DNA of 64,000 nucleotides from a virus (IMGVR_UViG_3300045988_154277), one strand, 5' to 3'. Shown: positions 27,907 to 50,387, counted from the stretch's first letter. The notes: generated by a model from the letters alone, not told the origin. Made by a program: numbers and translations.

Positions 27907-30900
27907 ATGCCATTCACATTCGATATGTCACCGAGTGAAGAGCGTCTTCTCTACGACAAGTTCTTCCGGACGAATATGTTCCGTAGGATCAATGATCTTA
28001 CGAGATTGTGGAACCGAGAGGATCTTGTTGAATACCCCGTAGGGAGTATGCTTCACTTGATCGACGATAACTTCTTGATGAACCATCCTGTTGTGTTGGT
28101 TCCCGATACCTCTGGTTGGTCTATGACCAGAAAACCAGACCGTAAGTTCGTGATGCACATCATAGAACCGGTACCTGCAACAGCGATCCCTCTTACAGAA
28201 ACCTTCGCTCTACCTACCTCAGGGGTGTCTGTTACGATCTTGAACTTCAAGAAGCGTAATCAGAACCTGATGCGTCCTGTTGTGAAGATGGAGGATTTTC
28301 CGAGTCCGATGCGTCCTGAAGTACAGAGTATCATCTCGTACAACGCACTTTACCGTGCTCGTATCTTTGGACTGTTGCGAGGATATCGTCGGTTCAATTA
28401 CATCTTCACCAACATCTTCAATACCATCTGCTCGATCGGAACGGGAAGACGACATTTCATCCCGATCCCTGTCGGAGATAAGGTCTTTGATCGAAACAAG
28501 TTCATGACCTCTTTTATCAAACACGATAAAGGTTCTCTGAAACTTGCAGAAGATCCGTGGTATCTGTTCATGGTTCACTTCATGGGGTGGTTGAACACCC
28601 AAAACACACCCTCTCTGTTCGAGAAAGTCCCTGAGAAGTATTGGGAATATATCAACTTCGTTCTGTATACAAGAACCAAAGTTCTTGTTCTCAATATGAA
28701 GCTCTTGAAAGAGTTCAACGAAGGGAACAAGATCCTTTGGCGGGTGATGAATTTGATCAACCTGATGGCTGAGGAAGGTCATCAAGCTGCGATGCAGGAC
28801 TTCGGTGATGTTCCGGTTGCATGTGATACACAAGAAGAACCAGGAGAACTCGCTGTTCAAGCGGATACTCCTTTTACAGAAGAGAAGGAACCGATCCATG
28901 TCACTACTCAAGAGACTGCTTCTGATCGTGACAACCAAGATCAGAGTACTGTTCCACAAGGATCCCCCAGAGAGGAAGATCAGGTAAACGAGGTTACCTT
29001 ACAGCAACCTCCTGCGGAACCTGCCCCCAAACAACAGGAACCCCCGTCTCCTGTGAAGACGATGTTCACTTCTCCTACCAGGAGGAAACCCATCCCGTAT
29101 CTCACCACTCAGCAGAGAGTCAAACGGGAGACTGATGAGTTCGAAAAGTATCTCGATTTCGAACCTCAGACGCTGACGATCGATCCCAAGTGGTTAGAAG
29201 TAGAGATGGTGGAGGGGAAACAGAATGCTCCCGAGTTCAAAGAGAACATGACGGAAGAGGAACAGAAAACCTCCAACCAGAAGTTCTTGAATGAGATTGA
29301 CGAAGGAGCGAAGACTCATATCGAGAATGATCAACATCTCAACAACTATCAAGCAGAGCAAGCGAAGAAACTCGCTGAAGCATACAAGAACATCAAAGTT
29401 GGAGATAAGACGATCGAACAGATCATCCAGGAAGTACCAGATGACACGGTTGCAACCAACACGTTGAATTTCTTGGAGGACGATCCGGATATCGTGGATA
29501 AGTCCATGTTGAAATCTTCCGTTGCTACGTTCGAACACGACTACATGAAGAAACTCTTCCTTCGGGATATGGTGATGAACCTCACCTCATTCAACAAACA
29601 AGGGATGTTCCTGAAGCAAGTGGATGTGGAAGACGTCAGCGATAGTCTGAACCAGCTGATGGAGTACAAAGTCACCTACGAGGATACAAGCAAGAAAACG
29701 CACGTCATCCGATTCAAACTTCCCAAAGTAGATGAGAGAGGATACTGTTATGTGAACGGTACGCTTAGCGTCCTGAAGAAACAGAGAGTCCCTCTTCCGA
29801 TCTGTAAGATCAACCCGACAACTGTTACGTTGACCAGCAACTACAACAAGTATCTGGTGGTGCGGAATGTCACGGTGGCTCACAGTTATATCAACTACAT
29901 CGAGTCGATCCTGAACAAAGGCAATACACCAGAACATCCTGTTGTTGTTCAGCTGAACACCAAGACTTGGAACGATGTGACACTCCCCTACGAGTACACC
30001 TCGTTGGCGAAGAAATACCTCAGCATCAAACTCTCGTTGACAGAGACAGTTGAGTTCTATTTCAACCTGGAAGGAAGACACCAGTGGTTGAGGGATGTTG
30101 GGGGTCTCTTACCAGAGGACTTGGACCTCGTAAAATCGATCGAGAGCGACGCGAAATGCCTTGCTGTAGCGTACGTTGGGAAGCGTCTAATCGGGTTCAT
30201 AGATATCAACAACATATTTACCGTGATCAACTTGGACGACCATACAACCTCTGCTTCTACGACGATCATCGATTTCTTGTGTGAGCAGTTGAATGTAGCT
30301 CCGACTCCGCTGTCAGAGTGGACGGATTTCAAACTGTTGGAGACAACGGTTCCTGTGATCTTCGCTCTCTGTTATCGGTACGGTCTGAGTGAGATGTTGA
30401 ACTACACCAAGACACAGTATCGTATCTTGGAATCAGGAGAACGTTCCTATCGGAACTGGTCTGATGTTGTAATACGGTTCGCAGATAAGACGCTGATCAT
30501 CCCGAGGTCTCCTCTGGTGAACAGCATGCTGTTCGCTGGGTTGAACTTCTTCCAGTTGAACAAGATCAATATGGAAGAGATGGACAGTAAAGATATCTAC
30601 TACGATCTTCTCCAGAGCAAGAAACGTTCTGTTCATTTCCTGAAAGGGATCGATAACTTCTTCGATCTGTTCGTGGATCCGATCTCCAGAGAGGTTCTGG
30701 AACAGATGAAAGAACCAACCAATGCAAGAGATATCCTGATCCGTGCTACTCAGCTTCTGACGACAGAAGATCACAAACCTCAGGCTTCCAGCACCAACTT
30801 CCGATTCCGTTCTTATGAACAGATCAATAGTGCGATATACAAAGTACTGAGTCGATCCTTCGCCAACTACAGAAGCAAGAGTGTAGGCGCTACTCACAAG

Positions 30901-31269
30901 TGGAGTATCGCAGATTACGAAGTGCAGCAGATGGTTATGCAGGATCAGTTAAAAGAGAATGTCGACATCATCAACCCCATCAACGACATCAAGTATCAGG
31001 AGGAGTTCTCCCATGCTGGATTCGCTGGTGGACGGAAGAGTCTGCAGAGTTTTACAGTCCCAGATCGTCAGTATCCGAAAGATGCTGTCGGTATCATCTC
31101 AGAGGCTACCGTCGATAGTGCGAAGACTGCATTCGCAGCGTCCACTTCGATGGATCCGACGATCGTCAATATGCGTGGGATGACACTCACCTCTAACCCA
31201 GATGAGTTGAAACCTACTCAGATCTTGTCGATCAGTTCTTTGATCATGCCTGGAGTGACGCAAGATGAT
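27907..31269 (+). CDS. multisubunit RNA polymerase beta-like subunit, exon 1 (about 1121 codons)
   Basis: GAAGGAGG RBS. NTPEHPVVVQLN resembles beta ETPEGPNIGLIN, and the C-terminal SLIMPGVTQDD resembles beta SLIPFLEHDD. The ORF is closed by a TAA that lies at the 5' edge of group I intron A. Confidence 0.6.
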
Positions 31270-31681
31270 TAACATTATAACAGTCCGGTATACCCGAAGA
31301 GGGTGTGCTTGTTACCATTCCTAATACTAGGAAGTTCTTAAGGTTCTACATACTACAACGTAGCTCAAAAGGCAAGCGTGATAGTCGCGAAAGCAGAAAG
31401 AAATGTAGAAATGACCTATGCTGAAATAAAAGCCTGTTACAAGGTGCTAAGGGTTGCTAACAAGGAATTACTAGTAGCGAAGTCTTGTCTATAAGACAGG
31501 ATGTGCTCAACGACTAGGGGGTTAATCGCCCCGTACCCGCCAAGTGGCGCTGGGAAACGGAATGGACCCTAACAGATTAAGCTGAGGGTTTGACATAGTC
31601 TCTACATCTACGGAAAGCGTAGAGCAGAACTTAATGTTCGGGTGATGAGTAACGATCATCACTGAAGATAAAGAGCAAGCG
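31270..31681 (+). ncRNA. group I intron A (ORF-less); core to about 31622 plus a possible 3' extension
   Basis: P7 halves GACTAG (31512-31517) and TAGTC (31596-31600). Q/R region GGATGTGCTCAACGACTAGG parallels Tetrahymena GGAUGCAGUUCACAGACUAA. P9 hairpin CTACG gaaag CGTAG (31608-31622). Extra hairpin GTGATGA gtaacga TCATCAC (31642-31662). Confidence 0.65.
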
Positions 31682-31690
31682 TCAAAATTT

Positions 31691-32047
31691 AAACATTACT
31701 GAACCGTATACTGGAAACAGTGTGCGTGCATAGACCCTTTAATTGTCTGGGAGTTCCTAAAGCCTGTTGGACCACAACGTGACTTGTAAAAGTGAGCGTG
31801 ATGGTGACGAAAGTAGAAAGAATCAACAGGATGTCTCATGCTGCAATAAAAGTCTACTTCTAGTAGATGCTAAAAGACAGTAACAATGGATAATCAGCAG
31901 CCGAGATCCTTCACGGAGGATCAGGTTCATCGACTAGACCTGAGAAGGTCGTACCCCTCAAGTGAGGCTGCGGAAATAAGGGTCCGCTAAACGTATCGTA
32001 AGATACGCATGTGTGAGATATAGTCAGTACATCATGCGAAACGCATG
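31691..32047 (+). ncRNA. group I intron B (ORF-less), homologous to intron A along its whole length
   Basis: R: TTCATCGACTAGACC (31932-31937 is GACTAG). S: GAGATATAGTCAG (32021-32025 is TAGTC), nearly identical to Tetrahymena AAGAUAUAGUCGG. P9: CATGCG aaa CGCATG (32033-32047). Aligns with intron A from AACATTA onward. Confidence 0.65.
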
Positions 32048-33241
32048 AGCTGGGTAACCATTCCCGGGACGGAAGTAACGACTCCGTCTGAACACAAAAG
32101 CGTAAGTATCCACCTCTCTCACTACCTTCCCACTGAGAAGTGTGAAGTGTCTCGTCTTCGTACAGGTTACGAGAAGATCGTAGCCCATCGTTGTAATCCT
32201 CCCTTCGCTTATGCTGCAGAAGCAGATGGTGTGATCGAAGCTATCGATCAGGAAGCGAAGATCCTTCGTGTGAAGTACAAAGATAAAACCGTTGCCGTAT
32301 CGTTCGGTGATGATTACACTAAGAACGGCGGTGGTGGATTCTACTGTACTCAGAACATCGTAATCAACGGATACGAAGAAGGAGATAAGGTCAAGCGTGG
32401 AGATATTATCATCTACAACGACCGGTTCTTCACTCCTGATCCGTACAGCAAACAAGTCAATTGGAACATCGGTGTGTTGAAAGACGTCGTTCTTATCGAC
32501 GGTGACAGTACACTGGATGACAGTTGCATCATGGATCATGATCTTGCTAAGGATCTTGCATTCAACCCTGTCCATATCCGTGACATCGTGGTCACCAAGA
32601 AGACTACGATCCACAAATATGCATCCATAGGAACAGAGGTCAAATCGATCGATCCTCTGATGATCTTCGACCAGTCGGAACTGAATGAAGATATGTTCGG
32701 TGGACTGGATGAAGATGCGATCCGTCTGTTGGGTAAGATCAACAAGAGAACTCCGAAAGCCAAGTTCACTGGTAAAGTAGTCGCACTGGATGCGTTCTAC
32801 ATCGGAGGGATCCAAGACATGGCTCCTGGTGTTCGTGGGTTGGTCAGTCTGATCAACAAGATGAAATATCAGAAACACCAAGCTGCGAAAGGAACTGTCA
32901 ACCAGGACAACTACCCTGTTTCTCAGAACATCACTCAGTCCAACCGGATCGGTATGACCGAACTGGATGAAGAGACGGTGATCTTCCGGTTCTATATCCA
33001 GCAGGATATGAAGATGAACGGTGGAGACAAAGTGGAGTTCGATAGTTCCTTGAAATCCGTCTGCACAGGTATCTCGAACAACTCCTGGGTGAGTGAAGAT
33101 GGTTCGTTGGTAGGACATGCTCTGTTCTCCACGATCGGTATCGACAACCGTATCATCAACTCTCCTAAGATCGAAGGGATGTGCAACAAGATCTTGGAGA
33201 CTGCGGAACAACAGATCCTCAAGATGTATTTCGAAGAGTGA
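32048..33241 (+). CDS. multisubunit RNA polymerase beta-like subunit, 3' exon (about 398 codons; exact 3' splice site uncertain by a few nt)
   Basis: Matches to E. coli beta: [32 protein letters not shown] versus [58 protein letters not shown] versus [43 protein letters not shown]...NKILET versus GDKMAGRHGNKGVISKI...GQILET. The ATG at 32045 used by the ORF track lies inside intron P9. Confidence 0.6.
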   Translation, partial: [397 protein letters not shown]

Positions 33242-34223: not shown

Positions 34224-35588
34224 ATGAATATTCTGAGTGACATGGACACATTCGACAGTGGTGACAACCCGAATTTCAACACGGGAACACTGCTCGATCT
34301 ACCCACTGGTAAATACGTACAAGGTGTGGATGATGAGTGGTATCTAACCGGTGGATTACCGATGCACATCACGGTATTCGGTGGTCGTAATGGACATTTC
34401 AAGAGTACGATCACCAACGCTTGTGCTCAACGTATCACCGCGATCTATCCGGACAGTGACCTGATCGTGGAGGATACGGAAGACAGTCTCACCAAAGACA
34501 AAGACCGCGCTTATGCGATGGCTGAAGAGCTGGCTCCGCAAGTGAATAAGAATAACGTTCAGTGGTTGAAAGGCATCGACTACGATCTCGACAGCTTCGA
34601 TAAGTGGTTCAAAGACTACTGTATCAAGAAAGAAGCCAATGCCAAAGATCTCATGGTGGAAACTCCGTTCTACGATGAGAAGACTCAAAAACCTCTTCGT
34701 GTGATGATCCCCACCACGATGATGATGGACAGCATCACTGAACTGGTAACCGCAGTGGAAGAGGACATGGTCAACGGTGAGAAGACTCAAGGGATCGGTG
34801 ACCCGAAGAACAATACTGTCGCTATGGTGGATGGCAACAAGAAAACACTGTGGATCCGAACCATGCGTCGTCGTTGTCAGAAGTACGGGATCATCTTCGT
34901 TGGTACAGGACATTACGATAAGATCCTAGAGATGGATCCTTACTCACCGACTCCCAAAGAGACCATCGTCGGGAAACAGTCGTATAAGTTGAAACGCTGC
35001 GGTAGCAATCTCAAGTTCCTAGCATCCATCTATGCGATCACCAACGCTACCCTCCTTGTCGATAGCAACAAAGAACCGCTTTACGACGATGGTACTTCTG
35101 CATCGAAGGATATCTTCCAAGTGGATGTTACGTTGGAACGTTGTAAGACAGCTTGCTCTGGAACAACAACTCCGTTCGTTGCATCGCAGACCAAAGGATT
35201 CCTGAATGCTGTTACCAACTACCACTACCTCAGACTGAACAACTACTTCGGTCTGAACGGCAACAAGCAAAAGCAGCAACCGTTCCTGATGCCAGATACT
35301 ACGATCTCTCGCAATACCGTTCGTCAGATCGCAGGATCCTCTCCTCAAGTGAGACGTGCACTGGAACTGGCTGCACAGTACTGCTTCATCAAGAACAACT
35401 GGAACACAAGAGATCTTCATGTGGATTTCAGTATGGATCCTGCCAAGGTCTTCGATATCCTGAACAGCGATAAGAAGAAGACATTGGTTCAAGACATCCT
35501 CAACACCAGAGGATACTGGACCTATGGTCAGTGTGACATCCCATACATGAGTCTGATCCGCATGTTGGAGCTTGTAAAACAAGGATAA
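34224..35588 (+). CDS. RecA-superfamily recombinase, UvsX-like (454 aa)
   Basis: TVFGGRNGHFKST resembles the non-canonical UvsX P-loop (GPSKSFKS type); a second block MIPTTMMMDSITEL. AGGAGA RBS. Confidence 0.4.
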   Translation: MNILSDMDTFDSGDNPNFNTGTLLDLPTGKYVQGVDDEWYLTGGLPMHITVFGGRNGHFKSTITNACAQRITAIYPDSDLIVEDTEDSLTKDKDRAYAMAEELAPQVNKNNVQWLKGIDYDLDSFDKWFKDYCIKKEANAKDLMVETPFYDEKTQKPLRVMIPTTMMMDSITELVTAVEEDMVNGEKTQGIGDPKNNTVAMVDGNKKTLWIRTMRRRCQKYGIIFVGTGHYDKILEMDPYSPTPKETIVGKQSYKLKRCGSNLKFLASIYAITNATLLVDSNKEPLYDDGTSASKDIFQVDVTLERCKTACSGTTTPFVASQTKGFLNAVTNYHYLRLNNYFGLNGNKQKQQPFLMPDTTISRNTVRQIAGSSPQVRRALELAAQYCFIKNNWNTRDLHVDFSMDPAKVFDILNSDKKKTLVQDILNTRGYWTYGQCDIPYMSLIRMLELVKQG

Positions 35589-35595
35589 TACATAT

Positions 35596-35633
35596 CTAAC
35601 ACTAGAGTGGCAACAACACCACTCTAGTGTTAG
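35596..35633. terminator. 15-bp stem hairpin
   Basis: CTAACACTAGAGTGG caacaaca CCACTCTAGTGTTAG. Confidence 0.5.
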
Positions 35634-35640
35634 ATGTTTA

Positions 35641-36108
35641 TTACGCGGGGATGAAGTAGAAGAGTTTCATCCGATTCGGTGTCTCGGTGGTAACGATGTG
35701 TGTCACACAATACATAAGACGTCCATCCGAAGCGGAGAACTTTTGTTTGCGGATCAGGATCTGACCCTGCATCTGCTCGATGGTATCACCCTCTTCCAGA
35801 TGATCTTTCTGAGCACACCAGTCGGTCCAGAGAGATTCTGTGATCGCAACTGCGTTGCTCGGAACAGAAGGATGCTGGTGATCACTGAAGAACAGTCCGT
35901 CTTCCCAGTAGTAATTGTTACCACTGCCAGGTTCGTTGGTCACGTGTTTGAGCGCCAGTTCCACCGTATCCACAAGACTGAGGATCTTGTTGTCCACAAC
36001 AGCACGACTTGCGGTACTGATGTCGCTCACCATCTCACCAGCGAGAACGGTCTTGATGTACGCTTCCACAGTCTGTTTCAGCTGTGCCTTGAATTGTTCT
36101 TTCGTCAT
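35641..36108 (-). CDS. hypothetical protein (155 aa)
   Basis: ORF divergent from the fibre operon. Confidence 0.5.
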   Translation of the reverse strand: MTKEQFKAQLKQTVEAYIKTVLAGEMVSDISTASRAVVDNKILSLVDTVELALKHVTNEPGSGNNYYWEDGLFFSDHQHPSVPSNAVAITESLWTDWCAQKDHLEEGDTIEQMQGQILIRKQKFSASDGRLMYCVTHIVTTETPNRMKLFYFIPA

Positions 36109-36148
36109 AGAAGAACTCCAAACGACCCCCAGCTGATATTCCTCGCAT

Positions 36149-36157
36149 GGGGGGGGG
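36149..36157. repeat. G9 homopolymer tract in the divergent promoter region of the fibre operon
   Basis: GCATGGGGGGGGGTAAGCC between the gene starts at 36108 (minus) and 36288 (plus). Confidence 0.9.
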
Positions 36158-36287
36158 TAAGCCGCCCCATACTTGGTTCACGAATGTGTTCTATACCATG
36201 CTTCTGTACCTCTGATCACAGCCTCGTCTAACGCCATGCTATGGCTCAAAACTACCTTGAAAAACCAAGCACATAAGGAGCTTAGAT

Positions 36288-37526
36288 ATGTCTACTGCGC
36301 CTATCCCACCTGTGGTGCGTTCTCCCCTCGTAAGGGATGTGACAGACGCATCGCAGAACAGATCGAAGCAGTTCATCCCCTCCGCATACGCCGTCGGCAA
36401 ACTGTTCACCGGCGTTACGTTGAAGGATGACATCGATCTGGATACTTACGTGGCACCAGGTGTGTCGCGTGTGAATACGTATAAAAACGGACCTCCGGTT
36501 ACCAGTCCTGGTTATCTGGTGATCCACACCGTGAACCCGGATGAGGATAAGAGTACCCTCAAGTATCGGTATCGTCAGATCTACTATCCAGACAGCACCA
36601 CGGAGACAACTCCCTATACTCGTGTGGGTAACAGCACGAATGGAACTACTATCACTTGGTCTGTGTGGACCACGATGGGTGGTAACTGGGTATGTGAGAT
36701 CTTGGGTGGTAACAAAACTGGTATCGTCAACTACATGTACCACTCGTTCAACAGCTGGACGCTTACCCTGCCTGATCCTAAACTGTATGTAACAGGAACC
36801 AGGATCGGATTGACCCAGTGGGTGAACAACGGTAAGGTGGTCTGGGGAACGAACGAACAGGTCACAACCCCTGATATCTCTGAAGAAGGAACTGTGGTTG
36901 GTGCCCTTCAATATATTTTTCAGATTGTACCTAAAAAACAACCGGATGGTAGTAGTGTAAACATATGGGCTCTGGATGTAGACAACAACATCGATGGTAC
37001 CGTCGAAAAGTTGGTGGAGAACTTCCAGAGCAAGGTCGATACGATCAATACCACGATCACGAACCTTACGAACCGCGTTGCTAAAGAAGAACAGACCCGT
37101 GCTTCAGAGGACACTGCGATCCGTAATGAGTTCCGTGCAGCAGATACTGCATTAGAGAACGATTTGAATGCGAAAATCGAAAAGAAGCAGCGTTTGATGA
37201 AGCACTTCATCAATGTAACTAACGCAACAGTTACGAATGGTTCTGGAAACTACGATATATCCGAGTTCGACTATACGCTGGAAGTGATCGCTAATGGAAC
37301 CATTTCAATCTATCCATCCAGCTCCGGAAATGCAGGACCGCATGGCGCACGACTTGTGTTGCATCTTCATCCAGGAATCACCACCGTTGTCAAATACATC
37401 AAGGGGGGACCTGAATATGCAGAGGAAACATTCCAAAACACAAGCACGTCCGATATCCTTGTTATCGATATGCAACTTACATACGTTAACAACACAACGA
37501 CGTGGACTGTCCTGGAAGTAGGATGA
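36288..37526 (+). CDS. tail fibre / receptor-binding-like protein (412 aa)
   Basis: AAGGAG RBS; Thr/Asn/Gly-rich beta-type sequence with a central coiled segment (NLTNRVAKEEQTRASEDTAIRNEFRAAD); located in the fibre locus. Confidence 0.5.
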   Translation: MSTAPIPPVVRSPLVRDVTDASQNRSKQFIPSAYAVGKLFTGVTLKDDIDLDTYVAPGVSRVNTYKNGPPVTSPGYLVIHTVNPDEDKSTLKYRYRQIYYPDSTTETTPYTRVGNSTNGTTITWSVWTTMGGNWVCEILGGNKTGIVNYMYHSFNSWTLTLPDPKLYVTGTRIGLTQWVNNGKVVWGTNEQVTTPDISEEGTVVGALQYIFQIVPKKQPDGSSVNIWALDVDNNIDGTVEKLVENFQSKVDTINTTITNLTNRVAKEEQTRASEDTAIRNEFRAADTALENDLNAKIEKKQRLMKHFINVTNATVTNGSGNYDISEFDYTLEVIANGTISIYPSSSGNAGPHGARLVLHLHPGITTVVKYIKGGPEYAEETFQNTSTSDILVIDMQLTYVNNTTTWTVLEVG

Positions 37527-37551
37527 TCTATCTAAATAAGGACACAACATC

Positions 37552-39369
37552 ATGCCTAATGATTTTATCACAACAAGAACCCCAGGTTCCCGTACTTCAA
37601 CGTACGGACTGGCGGATCACATAGCGGATACAAATGCTAATCCGCATCCTCAGTATCTGCTGAAGGACGATTACATCACTGGTGGTGCTGTAACTGACGG
37701 TAAATTGGAAGCACATATCAAAGATCTCAATGCACACGCTGGCGTACTCGCTTCGATCCAAATGCTGAACAACTATGTGTTGATATCGAAGTTCACTGAG
37801 CTCTTGAGTGCGAATCTGTATCATGATTATGCAAACGACAGTAGCGAAGCACATGCTGCATCTATGTCTGCTGTGAATGGCGCATATGGTGCAGCGCTGA
37901 CTGCGCTGAGCCAACATACGGTTCAGTATGCACAAAATGCCGCAGTAACAGGGCATCGTGATTCTGAGAACCAAGAGCTGTATGCACATCGAGTGCATAC
38001 ACATACATTGGAAGAACTGGGTGGAGCTACCAGTTTGCTCCCAGATCTGGATAAGAGGTATTCTCAACTTGGTCATAACCACGATGACCGATATGCTCTT
38101 ATCACACACTACCACAACTACCTTGCGCAGTCTGATCTTGAATCAGTCGGTATCTATCCGAACACGACGATCGGTATCGCTGGTACTGATACAGAGACTG
38201 GTGCTGTTACCGATCCGTTTGATTTCAATGACGAGACGCAACAGGGGAATGTTTCGATATCTCCTACTGTGATGTCTTCTGCGTTGAACAAACCAGACAT
38301 CACAACTCCGAGTGCCGCTTCGTTTTTGAATATCACCACAGAGATAACCTCTGCTGACAAAGAAGACGATAGTGATACTACCATCTACGGAGAACGGTAT
38401 GTGTCTCAGTCTTTGACCACCGATAATGGCATCTACTACCGTATCGGTCATCGTGCTGCTGGTTCATTGGCTGAAGGTCAGGATGAGTCTGCTCTCTGGA
38501 CTTGGAGTGATTGGCAACCTGTTGGTGGAGGTTCGAAGGATATCTTCGAGGTGTTTTACTCGACATCAACGGCTACACCAAGAGGCGCATTTCCACTGTG
38601 GACTGGTGAGATGATCACGAACTGTAAAACGCTATATCCGACGTTCTACCAGAAAGCGCTGGAATATCAAACCAGCGGTAAGATCCGAGTGGTTACCCCC
38701 ACTGTTTACGAACAAGAGCTGACTACGTACGGTGAGTGTGGTGCATTCGTGATCGACACAGCGACTGGTAACATTCGTCTTCCGAAGATCACAAGATTTA
38801 TCAGTTCTTTGGATGCGGTTGGTGATATCGGCGTCGCGAAGAACGATATGCTTGTTGACCACACTCACACAAATGATTACACAAATGTCAGTGGCAACGC
38901 ATCCCCGACTGCTGATGGAGTTCATGGTAGTGCCATGCCTGCAGAACGCGCAACTAGAAACACTACAGTGTCTGCAAGTAATTCTAAAACCACAGTTGGT
39001 AATGAAGTCCAACCCAAACACGTTCGTTTGGCGCTGTACATCCAGGTGTACAACTCGATTACGGCATCTGCGATCACTGATCTGGATGCTCGTGTTGGTG
39101 TGCTGGAACAAAATGCGATCATGTTCGCAAGACATGATTTCACAGCATCCCAGTGGAACGATAACAGTGATGGTACCTTCACTTATACGTTCAATACGAA
39201 CCACTTCACTTCATCTCACATTTACATGAATGAGACAGGAGGGTCGGTCCTTGTTGATGAATCCGTAGAAGTGCATATTGAGGGTCCAACTGAAACTGAC
39301 GCATCTTCGCGTAAAGTCAGATTGGTCTCCCCACAGCGGTTCTCCGGATACATCATCACATTGGGGTAA
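37552..39369 (+). CDS. tail fibre protein with His-box repeats (605 aa)
   Basis: NANPHPQY, LNAHAG, HRVHTHTLEE, LGHNHDDRYALITHYHNY motifs. Its internal module GAFPLWTGEMITNCKTLYPTFYQKALEYQTSGKIRVV...YGECGAFVID...IRLPKIT is shared with the 5535-6573 gene. Confidence 0.6.
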   Translation: MPNDFITTRTPGSRTSTYGLADHIADTNANPHPQYLLKDDYITGGAVTDGKLEAHIKDLNAHAGVLASIQMLNNYVLISKFTELLSANLYHDYANDSSEAHAASMSAVNGAYGAALTALSQHTVQYAQNAAVTGHRDSENQELYAHRVHTHTLEELGGATSLLPDLDKRYSQLGHNHDDRYALITHYHNYLAQSDLESVGIYPNTTIGIAGTDTETGAVTDPFDFNDETQQGNVSISPTVMSSALNKPDITTPSAASFLNITTEITSADKEDDSDTTIYGERYVSQSLTTDNGIYYRIGHRAAGSLAEGQDESALWTWSDWQPVGGGSKDIFEVFYSTSTATPRGAFPLWTGEMITNCKTLYPTFYQKALEYQTSGKIRVVTPTVYEQELTTYGECGAFVIDTATGNIRLPKITRFISSLDAVGDIGVAKNDMLVDHTHTNDYTNVSGNASPTADGVHGSAMPAERATRNTTVSASNSKTTVGNEVQPKHVRLALYIQVYNSITASAITDLDARVGVLEQNAIMFARHDFTASQWNDNSDGTFTYTFNTNHFTSSHIYMNETGGSVLVDESVEVHIEGPTETDASSRKVRLVSPQRFSGYIITLG

Positions 39370-39372
39370 TTA

Positions 39373-39379
39373 CCCCCCC
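39373..39379. repeat. C7 homopolymer tract between the fibre gene and the LRR gene
   Basis: GGGGTAATTACCCCCCCTCAG. Lies inside the 123-nt start-codon-free open leader of the LRR frame. Confidence 0.9.
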
Positions 39380-39437
39380 TCAGTTTAAATATACGCTTAT
39401 TGACTGGGGCGGGGTAACCGCTGCTCGCATCACAGGG

Positions 39438-41069
39438 TTGGAGTCGAATGAGTCCAACATATCAGCGTTGTACGTCCCATCCTTCATCACAGATGAGGAT
39501 GGGGTACAGTATCCTGTGAAATCTGTTGGTTTGAAAGCGTTCGCGGGTAATCCGAACCTTGTCAAAATCTATTTTGGAGAAGGTATCGAAGAGCTTCGTG
39601 AACAAGTATGTTACCACTGCTCTAACTTGGAGTCGGTATCACTTCCGTCTACACTACGTTATATGTGGAATGCGTTTCAAGAGTGTGGGAAGATAACTAC
39701 GTTGGAGTTACCAGCTAATCTGGAATACCTCGGATCAAGTTGGATATATTCGATGGTAGGACTTACTGGGGTGATCAACATCCCAGCTAAGGTAACTGAG
39801 ATCAATATAACAGCCATCTCGTCAGAGCATATAACCGGGTTTAATGTAGCAGCTGCTAATCCCAACTACAAATCCGTCGATGGGTGCTTGTTCACCAAAG
39901 ATGGAACAACGTTGTGTTTAGTACCGTCATCCGCTGATTGGGTGACTGAATATGTTACACCAGATGGTGTAACAACGATTTGGACAAGTGCATTTTCTAC
40001 CAACCGCAGTCTTGTCACATTGACACTTAGCGAAGGGGTTGTATCTGCACCAAGCGCAATCGGTAGCTGCACAAAGTTGATACAGTTGAATCTACCGTCT
40101 ACTCTAACAACCAACCCATTCCAATCCCTCGCCAATATGTACAGCTTATCTGCGATTACCGTATCGGAGAATAGTCAGACATTTGCGGCGGTGGATGGAG
40201 TGATGTTCACCAAAGATCTGAATACATTGATCAAGTATCCTCCTAAGAAAGAAGCAGCATATATCGTACCTTCTACTACCAAAATACTTGGTAGTGGTGC
40301 GTTCTCTTTAGGTAGGATGCAGTCTCTCACCTTGAATGAAGGATTACTTGCTATTTATTCAGATGCATTACGGTCTGTGATCAAAGTTCCAAGTGATAGT
40401 ACACTGAATGTGTTGCGTATTCCGAACACGGTCAACTCTATCGCCAACAACGGATTGTTTGAAGCGTTCTGGTCTGGCTTTGAAGTAGACAACACACATC
40501 CTTATTATTCCACGGATGGTTCTGTTCTTTATAACAAAAATAAGACTGCAGCTCTTGTGTATACCTGTGATACCTCCGCTCCTCACGATCGAGAAGTAAC
40601 ACTTCCATCTACCGTTGAGGAGATCGGTTTAGGTTTCTCACATAACAACAGTCCACTTGTGAAGTTAGATCTGAGTCGAACCAAAGTAACGGTTCTTCCG
40701 CAGTTCACTTGGTTCTCAACAGCGAACGACGGTAATGAACGAACTCTTTTGCTTCCAAACACGTTAACAAGGATCAATTATAACAGCATCCGAATCGTAA
40801 GTGCAAGAACTCTCACGATACCGGCTGGTGTAACTACCATTGAATCTGCTGCGATAGGGTTGGATAATGCAGAGGAGATCGTGTTCGAAGATCCAGGGCA
40901 AGCTGGATCTGATGGAGTTAAGGTGTTCAACCTGACAACCTTCAACAGCATCTTCTGGACTATATCTCCAAGGTGTGTTGTTCGTGGGTATAAAGGATCT
41001 GAAGACAACTTGTCTCCAGCTGAACAAATCGCCAAGCAGTATACATTGCTGTTTGAACCACTCGGTTAA
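39438..41069 (+). CDS. BspA-type leucine-rich-repeat surface-protein-like domain protein (543 aa), probable fibre/adhesin component
   Basis: Repeats of the form xxSVxxIGxxAFxxCxxLxxIxLPxxL throughout. No ATG: the track uses TTG at 39438, and the frame is open upstream back to 39315. Confidence 0.5.
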   Translation: MESNESNISALYVPSFITDEDGVQYPVKSVGLKAFAGNPNLVKIYFGEGIEELREQVCYHCSNLESVSLPSTLRYMWNAFQECGKITTLELPANLEYLGSSWIYSMVGLTGVINIPAKVTEINITAISSEHITGFNVAAANPNYKSVDGCLFTKDGTTLCLVPSSADWVTEYVTPDGVTTIWTSAFSTNRSLVTLTLSEGVVSAPSAIGSCTKLIQLNLPSTLTTNPFQSLANMYSLSAITVSENSQTFAAVDGVMFTKDLNTLIKYPPKKEAAYIVPSTTKILGSGAFSLGRMQSLTLNEGLLAIYSDALRSVIKVPSDSTLNVLRIPNTVNSIANNGLFEAFWSGFEVDNTHPYYSTDGSVLYNKNKTAALVYTCDTSAPHDREVTLPSTVEEIGLGFSHNNSPLVKLDLSRTKVTVLPQFTWFSTANDGNERTLLLPNTLTRINYNSIRIVSARTLTIPAGVTTIESAAIGLDNAEEIVFEDPGQAGSDGVKVFNLTTFNSIFWTISPRCVVRGYKGSEDNLSPAEQIAKQYTLLFEPLG

Positions 41070-41078
41070 CAACATGAT

Positions 41079-41111
41079 AACTTCTTGGGAGTATGTATCT
41101 CCCAAGAAGTT
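41079..41111. terminator. 13-bp stem hairpin
   Basis: AACTTCTTGGGAG tatgtat CTCCCAAGAAGTT. Confidence 0.5.
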
Positions 41112-41134
41112 CTATTAACAACAAGGATAACATT

Positions 41135-41482
41135 ATGTCTTACATCAAACATATGGGTAAGTTGGAACACGGAGGTGCTATCGGTGTCCCTGATTACCAA
41201 CAAGGGATCGTTATCCCTTGGGTAGATGGGTCCGGTTCTATGCAAGAGATAGGTGGTTCCAGTCGTAATATCCAGAAACAATACACGATACCTCAAGATG
41301 GATGGGTGATCGGACGACTTGGTGCAACTCACTACTCAGTCAACGGGATTTGGGTGAACCAAGGACAGGACAGCTACAACGGAGAAGGTTGTATCCCTGT
41401 GAAACAAGGCGACATCCTTGGTTGTGCAGCCAACTCACCATCAGATCATGTTTATTTCTACCCAGCTGTGGGGGGGGGGTAA
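41135..41482 (+). CDS. small fibre-locus paralog 1 (115 aa) ending in a G10 tract
   Basis: MSYIKHMGKLEHGG... ends PAVGGG-stop, with GGGGGGGGGG at 41470-41479 directly before the TAA. Confidence 0.55.
   Translation: MSYIKHMGKLEHGGAIGVPDYQQGIVIPWVDGSGSMQEIGGSSRNIQKQYTIPQDGWVIGRLGATHYSVNGIWVNQGQDSYNGEGCIPVKQGDILGCAANSPSDHVYFYPAVGGG
41470..41479 (+). repeat. G10 homopolymer tract at the 3' end of paralog 1
   Basis: Seen directly. Confidence 0.9.
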
Positions 41483-41512
41483 TTACCTTCTTGATGAGAG
41501 GAGGGCTGCCTA

Positions 41513-41902
41513 ATGTATACCAAATATATGGGAGCTCTCACTCCGAGTGTATGCGGTGCGCCTGATTACTCCAAGGCTGAGAACAGACCTTACACTACCA
41601 ACTCCAACGGCACTCGCGCATTCCATTACACAGAGTCACAATCGGGTTGGTTGTTCATCCAGTATGTGGCTGATGCGTTCGAAAGTAACCGTGCGAATCG
41701 ATTGATGATTGATGGAACTGCATTTGTGTTCAACGATACTAATGGAGCGAAGCATTACATCGATTATGTGTCGTATCAAGTTCCGATCGGTGCAGGAAGT
41801 ACTTGGGATTTCTCCTTCCAAGGGCAACGTGCTACAGTCACGTTCGTTCCATCGGGGGGGGGGTCGTTAGCTAACGACCTGATCTACGAGGAGGTGGCGT
41901 GA
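41513..41902 (+). CDS. small fibre-locus paralog 2 (129 aa) with a G10 tract 13 codons before its stop
   Basis: MYTKYMGALTPSV...VPSGGGSLANDLIYEEVA; GAGAGGAGGG RBS; G10 at 41854-41863. Confidence 0.55.
   Translation: MYTKYMGALTPSVCGAPDYSKAENRPYTTNSNGTRAFHYTESQSGWLFIQYVADAFESNRANRLMIDGTAFVFNDTNGAKHYIDYVSYQVPIGAGSTWDFSFQGQRATVTFVPSGGGSLANDLIYEEVA
41854..41863 (+). repeat. G10 homopolymer tract near the 3' end of paralog 2
   Basis: Seen directly. Confidence 0.9.
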
Positions 41903-42234
41903 TGGCTTACGTAAAACACATGGGGATCTTATCCCACGTTTATGCCGATATGGAGATCGACTACGCCAATGCTGTCACGCTTACCAGTAGCGAAACATAC
42001 ATCGCACCCAATGCAGGTGTATACTACGCGAAAGGTCACTCCACGAACAGTGGATCAGCGTCGATCATCGTCAGGGCTGTGAAAGGTGATGTACCGGCTA
42101 TCACCAACCAAGCTATCGTAACAGAAGGTAGCTACGACTTACACGCTAGTGTGGTGGTCGGCAAAGGTGACAGTTGTTCGATGATCGCAACCAGATGCAA
42201 CAATCTCGTGATACGGTTCTATCCATTCAAGTAA
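41902..42234 (+). CDS. small fibre-locus paralog 3 (110 aa)
   Basis: MAYVKHMGILSHV...; start overlaps the stop of paralog 2. Confidence 0.5.
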   Translation: MAYVKHMGILSHVYADMEIDYANAVTLTSSETYIAPNAGVYYAKGHSTNSGSASIIVRAVKGDVPAITNQAIVTEGSYDLHASVVVGKGDSCSMIATRCNNLVIRFYPFK

Positions 42235-42240
42235 TAGATC

Positions 42241-42277
42241 GTAGGATGTAGGTGGGATATCCCACCTACATCCTACC
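42241..42277. terminator. 17-bp stem / 3-nt loop hairpin
   Basis: GTAGGATGTAGGTGGGA tat CCCACCTACATCCTAC. Confidence 0.55.
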
Positions 42278-42884: not shown

Positions 42885-44537
42885 CTAGTGTATCGTAGAC
42901 CAGACTTTGCCGATCGCACCGATGTGATTGTGCTCCACAGCCATCTGACGGGTTGTGGTCGTACCGTAGATGTCGAAACTGACACCCATGTATTTCACAA
43001 TGTTGATCATATCGGTAACCAACGCTTTATCGATCTCCTGATCCTCGGTCAGGTACGAAGTGATATCAGCCAATACCGTGTCGATATCATCCACCATCTT
43101 GACAAGGCTATTCGTCGCTGCCAGATATTTCTCCATATCCAGAAGAGAGAGTCTGACATCTTTAAACTCCTTCATCGTCTTGTAAACGGACATGAACTTC
43201 ACATCCATCGGAGTTTTTTGTTCTGTGAAGACTTTATCCACAGAGCCTTTCAGAGAGTTCAAACTGGTCTCTCTCTGTTTGACAAGGTTCACCATGGGAA
43301 CCAGAGTGCTCTTATAATCTTCACTCCGCATCAACTTCCTTCTGAAATCGATCAGAGCAGCCAGAACACCCTGTCCATACGCCTGGATATCCAGCACTGT
43401 ATAGACTTGTTCCAGACTCATACAAGCGTTCTGGTAGGTACCTTTCATACCGCTTGGGATGGGGATATCTAGGTTCGTTACCTGAGTGATCGGAATGCTC
43501 TCGGCTTTCAGACACATCGTCGTATGCGATTCGTAGTAATACCGCATCTCAGAACGCTTCAGGTCTTTGTAGAATTTGAAGATATTGGTCTTGAATGTAT
43601 TGCCGATCTTGAGGAACACATCGGTCACACCGATGAAGATCTTCAGAAGACCGGTTCCGATCCCTTCGGTAGATGTGGTATCCAGAGTACGGAGGTAATT
43701 GTGATAGACTTCCAGCTTACGAAGGTCCTGATAAAGAGCATCACTGTTCCAAGGAATGAACGGATACTTGGATGCACAGACACGGAGGATCTCTTCTGAT
43801 TTCTCGGACTTATCATCCTTGTCATCTTCTTCATCTTCAGGATCCTCTTCCTCAGAGTCATCTTTATCTTTGTCTTTCTTGGACTTAGACTTCTTGTCTG
43901 ACTTATCATCTTCGTCGTCAGACTCTTCATCATCGTCCTCTTTGTCCTCATCGGAATCTGTATCATCATCTTCGTCAGAATCATCCTTATCATCAGAATC
44001 ATCATCATCGTCTTCTGACTCATCCTCCGGGTCAGGCTCTTCGTCTTCTTCATCCTCAGAGTCCTCATCCTTCTTGGATTTGGCGTTGCGGTAGATATAT
44101 CGTTCTTCAGACTTCTCTTCTTCGTCTTCCGGCTCATCGTCAGAAGTGTCTTCACCACCAACAAGATCCCATACTTTATCGACGAACGCTTTGATTTCAC
44201 GACCATCCTTCTTGATCCAGTCGTATTCAACATCGATCTTGATATCAGTATCGTACTTGTCTTTCAGTTCCTTCTCGATCTTCTTGAGAACATCAGACCA
44301 GTCGTCTTTTGTAAGGCTTTCCAGAGTGGAGAAATTGTGTTCTTCCTTTACAAAATCAGGACCATCGGAATAGTCGTTCAATAGTTTACAGATCATCCGA
44401 GAGATGACGTAACGGTTGAGCTCTTTGTCATCCTCTTCCTTCTCATCGGAACTCTCTTTCTCATTCCGAAGGTGCGTTGGTCGGATCGGTCGAAGACCTT
44501 CCGTCCCTAACGCAGACAAGCTAAACTTGGAAATCAT
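42885..44537 (-). CDS. protein with an approximately 130-aa Asp/Glu-rich low-complexity region (550 aa)
   Basis: DSEDEEDEEPDPEDESEDDDDDSDDKDDSDEDDDTDSDEDKEDDDEESDDEDDK... Confidence 0.55.
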   Translation of the reverse strand: MISKFSLSALGTEGLRPIRPTHLRNEKESSDEKEEDDKELNRYVISRMICKLLNDYSDGPDFVKEEHNFSTLESLTKDDWSDVLKKIEKELKDKYDTDIKIDVEYDWIKKDGREIKAFVDKVWDLVGGEDTSDDEPEDEEEKSEERYIYRNAKSKKDEDSEDEEDEEPDPEDESEDDDDDSDDKDDSDEDDDTDSDEDKEDDDEESDDEDDKSDKKSKSKKDKDKDDSEEEDPEDEEDDKDDKSEKSEEILRVCASKYPFIPWNSDALYQDLRKLEVYHNYLRTLDTTSTEGIGTGLLKIFIGVTDVFLKIGNTFKTNIFKFYKDLKRSEMRYYYESHTTMCLKAESIPITQVTNLDIPIPSGMKGTYQNACMSLEQVYTVLDIQAYGQGVLAALIDFRRKLMRSEDYKSTLVPMVNLVKQRETSLNSLKGSVDKVFTEQKTPMDVKFMSVYKTMKEFKDVRLSLLDMEKYLAATNSLVKMVDDIDTVLADITSYLTEDQEIDKALVTDMINIVKYMGVSFDIYGTTTTRQMAVEHNHIGAIGKVWSTIH

Positions 44538-48149: not shown

Positions 48150-50387
48150 ATGTCTGCTATTGACAAATACCTGAAGCAGCTTGAAACTGCGTTCGCCAAT
48201 ACTGGCAAAGCTGGTGATCTGGTTGGTATCGGTCGCTCGACGTACGACGCTGTTGGGAAATACCTTACCACCCGCAACATGATCAAGCGTGGCGCCTATG
48301 AACAGATGTCCATCAGCAACGAATCCATGAGCTTCGAAACTGCGATGAACGCGCAGGGCGTCGATGGTCTGAAAGACCTCGTTGAGAGTTGCGGCGTTCC
48401 GCAGGCTTACGTCAAGGACTGCTGCAAGACCATCCTGAACATCATGAACCGTTGCTCGCAGGGTGCGGCCGCTGCTTGGCAGCAGCAGAACCTCCGTGCG
48501 GATCACACGGCCAACGGTCAGGCGGAAGCTCGTCCGCTCTCCTCGATCTACAGCTCCGACGTTGCTGGCATTCTGAACAGCACCGCTGTGGCCGGTCAGG
48601 AAGCGTTCGGTACCAACGTCGATATGGCGGTTCCGGATATGAAGGTTGCCATCACGGTTGCCATCATGGACTTCCATGTCCGTCTGATCCCCCGCGTTAT
48701 GCCGACCCGTTCCACGACTCAGCCGAACGTCTCCTACACCAAGGAGTGGCTGGAAGTTTACGATCTCACCGGCAACACCAAAGACAGCCAGCGTCTCGTT
48801 GACCTGTACGCCGATCCGTCCTTCGCTCGCAATGAGCTGAAACTGATCGAAGTCAACCCGGCCAACGATCCGGAACAGAAGTTCATCAACGGTGATGGTA
48901 CGCTCAAGTTCGGCCCGAAGGCCAACATCCTCGAGCTCTCCACCCGTGAGGACAAATACGGTTACAGCCATATCAACCGCACCGACCTGATCGCGGACAA
49001 CGTCCAGATCAAGTTCGTTCGTGTCGCTCTGACCTTCAACGGTGGCGAAGCGGAATACTTCGACTGCGAAGTTCCGATCAGCAAGAACCGTCTGACCCGT
49101 ATGGTCAACGCCAACGACTCTGCGATGCGCAATGCAGACATCAAGTTCCGTACCTACCTCCGCAAGAGTGCGATGATGGCGAACGGCTCTGCGTCCGGCA
49201 TCCTCTCGAACCTGAGCGACAGCGAAGCGTTCGTCCTTGACTTCAACGTCAAGCCGAGCATCTCTCTGAAGTGGGGTATCGCGGACTGTCTTGCGGACGT
49301 CAGCGTCAGCGTTCGTCACGATATCGACAACGCTCAACTCAGCGGATTCGCGACCTCTCTGATGAGCAGCGGCGCTCTGAGCCTGATCGGTTATGAACTC
49401 GACGCTCGTTTCTCGGAAGAGAACCTGCGCAAGACCTCCATCGCGGTTATGACCCACCGTGTTCCGTTCTCGTTCGATATCCCGATCGGTCGGAACTATG
49501 TGTTCGATTACGCGATCGGTCAGGTCAATGCGGAAGAGAACGCCACCAACCTCACCAAGGTCATCGGTCTCGGTCAGGACAAGGTTGCGCTCGAACTCGG
49601 CATCCGTACCATCGAAGATGTCTACGATCGCATCCGTGCGGTCAGCCCGAACCCGGTCGATCGTCCCGAATATGTCGGCACCAACTATGTTGCTGGCGAC
49701 AAGGTTCGCCCGTCCATCTTCATCGGCGATCTGGATCTGACCAATCTGGAAACCATCCGTGATGCTGACCGTGCTGGCGACATCAAGCAGAAGGCCATCT
49801 CCATGCTGACCGCTGCTACCAGCCGTATCCTTCAGGAGTCCTTCCTGCAGCAGCAGCTCGGTGGTTCGACCACGGCTACCTTCAAGGGTATCACCAGCAT
49901 CGAGATCCTCGGCAACGTCATCGGTATGCCGCACATCCACGACCATATGTCCAAGGATGATGGTCGCAACGTCGGTGACGGTGTGGAATACGTTCTCGTT
50001 CTGCCGAACGGCGTGAAGATCGAGTTCGTGACCTCCACCTTCGACAGCATGCGCGACAAGATCGTCATGTGGCCGACCATCCCGAACAACACCGAAAGTG
50101 AACTGCACTTCGCTCACAACTGGGACTATGGGTGCATGGTTGCCCATTACACCCCGAGTGGTGAAGCGGCTCACCATCGTCTGTTCGGCAACATCCGTGA
50201 ACTGCCGATCGTCGTCAACCCGCTGGGTCTCATCATCCAGGTCAAGGGTATCGAGCTGGCGAACGGTATCGCTCTCGATGGCGTCGTCCGTCCGACCTTC
50301 AACGTCAACGTGGAAGGCTCGGTTGTCACGACTGTCAACGGAACGATCACCACGGCTCCGGAACAGGGTGGCACTGAAGAGCCCTGA
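48150..50387 (+). CDS. highly expressed, codon-recoded 745-aa protein; candidate major capsid protein (alternative: another very abundant structural or shell protein)
   Basis: AAGGA RBS. G+C and codon choice visibly differ from neighbours (CTG, CGT, CCG, GGT, AAC, TTC, ATC, ACC dominate). Size is typical of jumbo-phage major capsid proteins. A full-length antisense ORF (828 aa) is a GC3 shadow. Confidence 0.45.
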   Translation: MSAIDKYLKQLETAFANTGKAGDLVGIGRSTYDAVGKYLTTRNMIKRGAYEQMSISNESMSFETAMNAQGVDGLKDLVESCGVPQAYVKDCCKTILNIMNRCSQGAAAAWQQQNLRADHTANGQAEARPLSSIYSSDVAGILNSTAVAGQEAFGTNVDMAVPDMKVAITVAIMDFHVRLIPRVMPTRSTTQPNVSYTKEWLEVYDLTGNTKDSQRLVDLYADPSFARNELKLIEVNPANDPEQKFINGDGTLKFGPKANILELSTREDKYGYSHINRTDLIADNVQIKFVRVALTFNGGEAEYFDCEVPISKNRLTRMVNANDSAMRNADIKFRTYLRKSAMMANGSASGILSNLSDSEAFVLDFNVKPSISLKWGIADCLADVSVSVRHDIDNAQLSGFATSLMSSGALSLIGYELDARFSEENLRKTSIAVMTHRVPFSFDIPIGRNYVFDYAIGQVNAEENATNLTKVIGLGQDKVALELGIRTIEDVYDRIRAVSPNPVDRPEYVGTNYVAGDKVRPSIFIGDLDLTNLETIRDADRAGDIKQKAISMLTAATSRILQESFLQQQLGGSTTATFKGITSIEILGNVIGMPHIHDHMSKDDGRNVGDGVEYVLVLPNGVKIEFVTSTFDSMRDKIVMWPTIPNNTESELHFAHNWDYGCMVAHYTPSGEAAHHRLFGNIRELPIVVNPLGLIIQVKGIELANGIALDGVVRPTFNVNVEGSVVTTVNGTITTAPEQGGTEEP

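Follow-up and report, generated by a model that had tools for sequence, protein, structure and literature searches.

Long runs of G or C in and beside the tail-fibre genes of a human-gut jumbo phage are probably hypermutable simple-sequence tracts that give rise to rapidly changing, heritable variants of the distal tail-fibre set. The DNA in question is a 64-kilobase (kb) stretch of the virus IMGVR_UViG_3300045988_154277, 64,000 nucleotides (nt) long and hereafter called the window, which exact-protein look-ups place on human-gut metagenome contigs of ~278-282 kb and thus within a phiKZ-like phage of ~279 kb. Most of the runs lie in a fibre module that ends in three small paralogous genes, here called knob genes 1, 2 and 3, and another lies in a second, short tail-fibre gene elsewhere in the window (Table 1). 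An earlier note, made from the sequence alone, had likened this layout to bacterial contingency loci. At the sequence level our comparison with related phages supports that reading: the tract positions are conserved, their lengths vary, the same changes recur on identical backgrounds, and a paralog without a tract is stable in length. Judged by these comparisons the tracts appear hypermutable, with changes that are both heritable and recurrent.

Long G and C runs exceed chance expectation and are not dictated by protein sequence

A full run-length census of the window found G/C runs of at least 7 nt at exactly five sites, reproducing the positions and lengths given in the earlier note. The next-longest G/C runs are C6 at 16973 and G6 at 37403, in keeping with its statement that runs elsewhere do not exceed 6, and A/T runs are never longer than 6. 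The placement it described also holds, with one run in a divergent gap, one at the stop of the 605-amino-acid (aa) fibre gene, two in the last codons of two small paralogs and one near the 5' end of the fibre paralog. Under Markov models of orders 1-4, computed with the long tracts masked, 64 kb would be expected to contain 0.3-1.5 G/C runs of 7 or more but only 0.008-0.06 of at least 9. Chance thus falls far short of explaining the three G9/G10 tracts, while it could account for C7 and C8 by themselves.

The codons used at the two knob tracts point in the same direction. Across 30 genes of the window, GGG accounts for 16% of Gly codons, and the 14 Gly-Gly-Gly tripeptides encoded by these genes are written with mixed codons in 12 cases, GGG-GGG-GGG occurring at the two knob sites only. 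A distant relative (L027) writes the equivalent protein end, PPIGG, with GGA GGA. Given this pattern, the homopolymers are not forced by the protein sequence.

Tract positions are conserved among relatives while tract lengths differ

Our look-ups of exact protein matches, together with one pattern scan, yielded ~20 related metagenomic contigs from various samples and assemblers. Among relatives with 3-10% divergence the tract positions are kept and the lengths differ. Four of the window tracts are polymorphic at a conserved position, namely the intergenic G9 (7-12), the knob-1 tract (7-10), the knob-2 tract (8-11) and the C8 of the second fibre gene (8/10), the exception being C7. The earlier note had proposed such a comparison and had named lengths fixed in populations as evidence against its reading; across the ~20 contigs positions proved conserved and lengths were not fixed, with changes recurring on identical backgrounds. 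These changes also switch the form of the product, which is either 346 aa or cut short by a stop after 45 codons for the fibre paralog, and which differs in its tail and stop position for knobs 1 and 2.

In the closest comparisons the tracts are the only difference. The window and L001 have 0 mismatches in 16 kb, and their sole gap is G10 versus G9 at 41470; L016 and L024 have 0 mismatches in 7.4 kb, and their sole gap is G10 versus G11 in the knob-2 tract. Two contigs from two samples, L021 and L022, are identical, tracts included, and this agreement at all tracts indicates that tract calls are reproducible.

A C tract early in a second fibre gene has the layout of an on/off switch

By its sequence, the C tract at 5638 would be the sole tract with a classic on/off switch layout. 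The second fibre gene begins at ATG 5535, preceded by a GAGGTG ribosome-binding site, and in the window C8 leads this frame to a stop after 45 codons, so that the gene is frameshifted OFF. Computed frames give 345 aa for C7 and 346 aa for C10 (on), while C8, C9 and C11 are off. The window, L014 and L026 have C8 and L025 has C10, and full-length 346-aa alleles were found as P0055, P0061, P0064, P0065, P0066 and P0068. In OFF genomes, gene finders call a 272-aa remnant from GTG 5755, which has no ribosome-binding site. In 90%-identity clusters the 272-aa OFF form is represented by 24 contigs, the 346-aa ON form by 9 and a 253-aa form by 3. ON and OFF alleles are identical across their common 271 aa on three backgrounds (P0061 and P0054, P0055 and P0062, P0064 and P0058), implying at least three independent switches. 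Further, the ON alleles are intact on several backgrounds and no second inactivating mutation was seen.

Knob tracts exchange C-terminal tails and move the stop relative to the next start

The G10 at 41470 codes for the final Gly-Gly-Gly of knob 1. With G10 or G7 the stop lies right behind the glycines, whereas G9 adds NYLLDERRAA and brings the stop over the knob-2 start codon (TAATG). Relatives have 7, 8, 9 or 10 G at this site, and one knob-1 protein core was found with the tails GG, GGG and GGGNYLLDERRAA. At the knob-2 tract, where relatives have 8, 9, 10 or 11 G, G10 gives the tail GGGSLANDLIYEEVA with a stop overlapping the knob-3 start (TGATG), G9 gives GGGR and a stop, and G8 or G11 gives GG(G)VVS and a stop; four knob-2 protein cores each occur with two or three different tails. 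The 90%-identity clusters accordingly hold knob-1 forms of 114, 115 and 125 aa and knob-2 forms of 118, 119, 120, 122, 124 and 129 aa. Knob 3 serves as a control and is 110 aa long in 13 of the 15 listed cluster members, the remaining entries of 62 and 93 aa being taken as truncated sequences.

Because they are located in the last codons, the knob tracts affect nothing but the C-terminal tail and the place of the stop. A gain or loss of one base brings in a different tail, with 0 to 13 extra residues, and shifts the stop between a place ~30 nt ahead of the next start codon and one overlapping it, and in 3/3 junctions the long frame ends exactly over that start (TAATG, TGATG, TGATG). Beside the knob-1 tract, relatives also differ in having two or three A, such that G8 with A3 gives the same frame as G9 with A2. 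This compensation is present on several contigs and is a pattern that random error would not give.

Sequence junctions in relatives show that the tracts are also joints where knob genes were deleted. L019 is without knob 2, its knob-1 flank being followed by G10 and then by the knob-2 downstream flank, so that the loss lies exactly between the two tracts. L007 and L011 are without knob 3, with the joint at a knob-2 tract that has decayed there to GGGCGG. In L029 (P0026), knobs 1 and 2 are fused via their common N-terminal motif. L090 (P0003) has in its knob-1 slot a knob that is only 36% identical, and yet the G9 tract is kept and the long frame ends over the next start (TGATG). The gene behind this slot (L090:3782-3970) begins with MYTKHMG, as knobs do, and continues as a His-x-His fibre-like protein. 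To judge from this shared beginning, the short N-terminal motif MYTKHMG may be a docking or recombination module common to different distal proteins.

An intergenic tract, a stable C7 and a sixth tract outside the window

The G9 at 36149 sits 40 nt upstream of the start codon of a 155-aa gene and 130 nt upstream of that of the divergently transcribed fibre operon, and its length in relatives is 7, 9, 10, 11 or 12. We considered a location inside an N-terminal extension of the 155-aa gene, for which L016 and L024 have a 199-aa call, and rejected it; the upstream frames hit stops in most relatives, and the stretch is therefore non-coding. It presumably holds the promoters and 5' leaders of both the 155-aa gene and the fibre operon. 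Scanning the module for sigma-70 promoters told us little, with 4 sites versus 11.9 expected; phages of this kind transcribe with their own RNA polymerases. The whole intergenic stretch is prone to indels: a C5 run (36127-36131) that precedes the G tract by 18 nt reads C6 in two relatives and has a 3-nt flank deletion in another (L011, L019, L018).

The C7 at 39373, which the earlier note had listed among its five tracts, did not behave as hypervariable, being 7 in 18/19 contigs and 8 in L011. Its first four bases are part of a palindrome, GGGGTAATTACCCC (39363-39376).

We also identified a sixth tract ~6.4 kb past the left window end, a G12 at L031:18387-18398 that is G9 in the IMG/VR relative L035 (reverse complement, 7070). 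This tract sits between two divergent genes, one RNA-polymerase beta-like and one for an internal head protein, 35 nt upstream of the latter, and is followed by TAATTAC, as is the knob-1 tract. No G/C run of 6 or more was found in the ~9 kb past the right window end. Within the ~82 of 279 kb covered, five of six tracts are thus in or beside fibre genes and the sixth adjoins a head-protein gene, so the earlier claim that such tracts belong to host-recognition genes stands as a concentration and not as an exclusive rule.

Perfect palindromes start with the last G of G runs at 39363-39376, 41479-41486, 41863-41878 and L031:18398-18405. The one directly behind the knob-2 tract is GTCGTTAGCTAACGAC; at 39363, 41470 and L031:18387, the three sites found in the ~82 kb, it is GTAATTAC, extended to GGGGTAATTACCCC at 39363. 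We considered a G run with GTAATTAC as a conserved functional motif, but this candidate was weakened, as the copy after knob 1 is disrupted by an extra A (GTAAATTAC) in 9/19 relatives and a scan of IMG/VR was uninformative: G8-TAATTAC gave scattered matches without enrichment, with one occurrence in a related 197-kb contig. The flank of the knob-1 tract, used as a pattern against IMG/VR, gave no match. Among single-strand folds around the tracts, none was significant except at the G12 outside the window (marginal, z -3.0) and at the palindrome after the knob-2 tract.

The fibre module and its genomic context

The module is bracketed by two strong hairpins, at 35586-35643 (I1) and 42241-42276 (I3). 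Searches of PHROGs, Pfam and PDB sequences with the fibre, knob and 155-aa proteins gave very little besides the LRR_5 match listed in Table 1 and one weak PHROG tail-fibre match, to the second fibre gene (E 1.9e-4); the 155-aa gene had no family match in PHROG or Pfam. A profile of the knob, a ~110-aa jelly roll, found 167 proteins among 1.8 billion representatives, and in most of these the domain forms the very C-terminal end of a longer protein, in some cases one with an N-terminus of a PHROG tail-fibre family. The distant relative L027 (~75-81% nucleotide identity) has it as the C-terminus of the 609-aa fibre. It follows that the knob genes are free-standing versions of a knob domain from the fibre tip.

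Table 1. Tracts, genes and other features of the fibre module and the second fibre gene, in window coordinates.
Feature	Position	Strand	Remark
C8 tract	5638-5645	+	codons 35-38, near 5' end of fibre paralog
G9 tract	36149-36157	+	179-bp divergent gap between 155-aa and 412-aa genes
C7 tract	39373-39379	+	begins 4 nt past stop codon of 605-aa fibre gene
G10 tract	41470-41479	+	last codons of knob gene 1
G10 tract	41854-41863	+	13 codons ahead of knob gene 2 stop
Second short tail-fibre gene	5535-6573	+	paralog of residues ~330-480 of 605-aa fibre, plus C-terminal knob
155-aa gene	35641-36108	-	points away from fibre operon; kept in relatives
Divergent intergenic region	36109-36287		179 base pairs (bp); non-coding
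412-aa proximal fibre protein with coiled-coil segment	36288-37526	+	homolog is first fibre-module gene in L027
605-aa fibre protein with His-x-His repeats	37552-39369	+	L027 homolog is 609 aa, with C-terminal knob
533-aa protein with BspA-type leucine-rich repeats	39468-41069	+	PF13306 LRR_5, E 9.5e-32
Knob gene 1, 115 aa, ending in YPAVGGG	41135-41482	+	stand-alone copy of fibre C-terminal knob
Knob gene 2, 129 aa in window	41513-41902	+	paralog of knob 1
Knob gene 3, 110 aa, without tract	41902-42234	+	paralog, internal control
Inverted repeat, perfect 18+18 nt	42241-42276		closes fibre operon and convergent 195-aa gene

The L027 module is simpler than that of the window: it consists of just a 404-aa and a 609-aa gene, lacks long G/C tracts and retains, behind the fibre gene, a leftover of the 3' end of knob 3. 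L027 and L028, both on this distant relative's contig (IMGVR_UViG_3300045988_163688, 361 kb), are one region present twice in opposite orientation, which suggests an inverted duplication or an assembly artefact. In other relatives, an HNH/NUMOD4 homing-endonuclease gene lies between a UvsX-like gene and the 155-aa gene (L019:262-798, L023:1-441); the window is without it, and it is therefore a mobile insertion beside the fibre module.

The phiKZ-like assignment comes from PHROG and Pfam matches to a phiKZ-type major capsid protein (48150-50387), phiKZ internal proteins, a divergent DnaB helicase, a DNA polymerase and a split beta subunit of a multisubunit RNA polymerase (27907-31272 and 32045-33241). 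The two beta-subunit open reading frames (ORFs), of 1121 and 398 aa, match consecutive parts of one PHROG profile, and the ~770 bp between them (31273-32044) contain no called gene and match no Rfam intron; scanning the whole window with Rfam likewise gave nothing. Among GenBank phages, megablast gave no match for the fibre module or structural genes and tblastn none for the major capsid protein. Elsewhere in the window, a 2670-aa ORF at 9928-17940 (minus strand) has 100% identity in a near-identical contig, and a 550-aa protein at 42885-44537 (minus strand), with a very long Asp/Glu/Ser-rich low-complexity region and triplet repeats at 43962-44012, varies from 540 to 567 aa among relatives.

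A proposed route from tract length to adsorption

The mechanism we propose starts with slipped-strand mispairing, through which bases would be gained or lost while the phage DNA is copied, perhaps at high rates because replication in a phage nucleus could be out of reach of host mismatch repair. In the second fibre gene, the C tract close to the start would then bring the 346-aa frame in (C10, and C7 as predicted) or out (C8). The knob proteins would act as alternative receptor-binding tips, and tail switching, stop-start coupling and the length of the upstream tract would alter which of these tips are made or assembled. Progeny would thus differ in adsorption, a form of bet-hedging, and we infer from this layout that the tracts may diversify adsorption specificity. 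An extended version, which we offer tentatively as possible but rather unlikely, would have five or more hypermutable tracts that vary independently and act in combination as a switchboard, in which one turns a fibre on or off, the knob tracts choose among three tips through their tails and stop-start coupling, one or two tune divergent promoters, and the same tracts serve as joints for recombination of knob cassettes. If this were so, its knob tracts would represent phase variation at gene ends instead of gene starts.

Alternative explanations

Several points weigh against adaptive diversification by the tracts. The comparison covers ~82 of ~279 kb (~30%) of the genome, and all lengths come from assembled contigs. 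L027 manages without tracts, using GGA GGA codons, so they are not needed for fibre function, and the sixth tract is variable yet not beside a fibre gene. Since the coding G tracts sit at 3' ends and all frames reach a stop within 16 codons, variation in the knob tails may matter little or not at all for the phenotype; the three frames of knob 2 are comparably frequent (19:11:9 contigs), as expected if near neutral; and the stop-start coupling may be irrelevant because the knob genes downstream are each preceded by a strong ribosome-binding site of their own. The closed frames, their similar frequencies, the tract-free relative and the extra tract in a non-fibre intergenic region would all fit a hypermutability that is real but merely tolerated as a by-product without adaptive role, with neutral drift where frameshifts harm least, at gene ends, in intergenic DNA and in a dispensable extra fibre gene. 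The prevalence of OFF in the fibre paralog (24/36 contigs versus 9 ON) fits as well. We consider such drift unlikely, though to be taken seriously: Gly3 is written entirely with GGG at these two sites only, contrary to codon usage, the tract is kept across knob cassettes just 36% identical (L090), the long frame terminates over the next start codon in every junction, and the ON alleles have stayed intact on several backgrounds. It could also be that the true lengths are fixed and the differences are artefacts. Homopolymers, including those of 9-12 nt, are error-prone in sequencing and assembly, L008 breaks off within the upstream tract, L011 is +1 at three runs together, and the two zero-mismatch pairs could each be one sample assembled twice. 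This is nevertheless the weakest of the alternatives, and a highly improbable one, because tract states are lineage-consistent on several independent contigs each, for instance GGVNYLLDERRAA on 6, GGVVS on 5 and GGGR on 11. The agreement of L021 and L022, the two-base difference between C8 and C10 and the compensating extra A beside the knob-1 tract also speak against it.

The runs might instead be recoding sites, where RNA-polymerase slippage or ribosomal frameshifting yields several protein forms and DNA variation is secondary; a +1 shift at CCC-AGG, for example, would rescue the C8 gene. In support of this, C8 is the most frequent state of a gene that is otherwise intact, rescue would take a +1 shift at CCC before AGG, the rarest Arg codon (8.8%), a perfect palindrome (GTCGTTAGCTAACGAC) lies directly behind the knob-2 tract, and runs of at least 9 are known to cause transcriptional slippage. 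However, a programmed site has a slippery run of fixed length and a conserved stimulator, whereas here the length varies, the local folds are not significantly stable and the hairpin is too near the run for a classic -1 frameshift signal. In-frame alleles are moreover present in the DNA itself, and recoding is in our view quite unlikely. A cis-acting signal made of a G run and a palindrome, such as a protein-binding, promoter, terminator or recombination site bounding the fibre cassettes, would make the length variation incidental. The ~82 kb contain three copies of GTAATTAC, all directly behind a G run, two of the tracts lie between divergent genes, knob genes were lost exactly at tracts, and tract and downstream linker are kept beside unrelated knob cores. 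Yet GTAATTAC is missing behind the upstream and knob-2 tracts, nearly half of the relatives (9/19) have a broken palindrome (GTAAATTAC), G8-TAATTAC is not enriched in IMG/VR beyond scattered matches, and L027 has neither the tracts nor GTAATTAC, all of which leaves such a signal very unlikely.

Significance and comparison with known systems

If the hypermutable tracts do diversify adsorption, they would help explain how this phage persists beside variable gut hosts. They would also bear on host-range prediction, as a 'frameshifted' fibre gene need not mean a pseudogene or an assembly error, and on annotation pipelines, which called 272-aa, 115/125-aa and 118/119/120/129-aa versions of the same genes.

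Homopolymers drive phase variation at bacterial contingency loci in Haemophilus, Neisseria and Campylobacter. The C tract of the fibre paralog resembles these in lying near the 5' end of a surface-recognition gene, in having two of three lengths out of frame and in its recurrent ON and OFF states on identical alleles, and the intergenic G tract resembles bacterial promoter-spacer tracts. Unlike the bacterial loci, the replicon here is a virus with its own DNA polymerase and is known from sequence alone.

Other phages reach a comparable outcome by other means. The Mu G and P1 C invertible segments and the diversity-generating retroelements of Bordetella BPP-1 switch parts of tail fibres, and the presumed result here is the same, one genome giving progeny with different distal fibre or receptor-binding parts. 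The mechanism differs: the module has no long inverted repeats around it, only short hairpins at its ends, and no recombinase within it, and no invertase or reverse transcriptase was found among the annotated genes, though some ORFs were unscanned. In T2/T6/S16-type phages, gp38 is a separate tip adhesin that docks on the long tail fibre. The knobs are likewise small proteins encoded just behind a fibre gene and could be exchangeable receptor-binding tips, and our guess, by analogy, is that free knobs might dock on the fibre as gp38 does. They have no sequence or fold relationship to gp38, being jelly rolls that in relatives are fused to the fibre C-terminus.

Sorensen and colleagues are said to have described, in 2021, polyG tracts of hypermutable length in genes for receptor-binding proteins of Campylobacter Fletchervirus phages. 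As in those phages, where the runs are reportedly ~7-11 long, G runs here lie in putative distal tail or receptor-binding genes of a lytic phage, shift frames and may produce mixed populations. The phage studied here is an unrelated phiKZ-like gut jumbo phage, and a PHROG search of its module proteins found no similarity to annotated receptor-binding-protein families. Two of its tracts, moreover, lie in last codons and switch C-terminal tails instead of turning a gene off, and further tracts are intergenic.

Experimental demonstrations of homopolymer phase variation in phages are few, comprising Campylobacter phages and, in a 2025 preprint, T-even phages. In T2, T4 and other coliphages, homopolymer runs show elevated slippage, reversible frameshifts and population heterogeneity; they are mostly 6-9 nt, of any base and in all gene classes, and tail-fibre genes are significantly depleted of runs of at least 6 (0.77x) (Gomez, Barrick and Waters 2025, bioRxiv 10.1101/2025.10.21.683753). 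The layout described here is the opposite, with tracts of G or C only, 8-12 nt long and mostly in the fibre module of a common, nucleus-forming-type gut phage, where they are visible from public metagenomes. Phase variation of this kind is already known, and what is new is its setting in an unrelated, uncultured gut jumbo phage. What sets this system apart from those above is the position of tracts at 3' gene ends, the toggling of stops against starts and the use of tracts as deletion joints.

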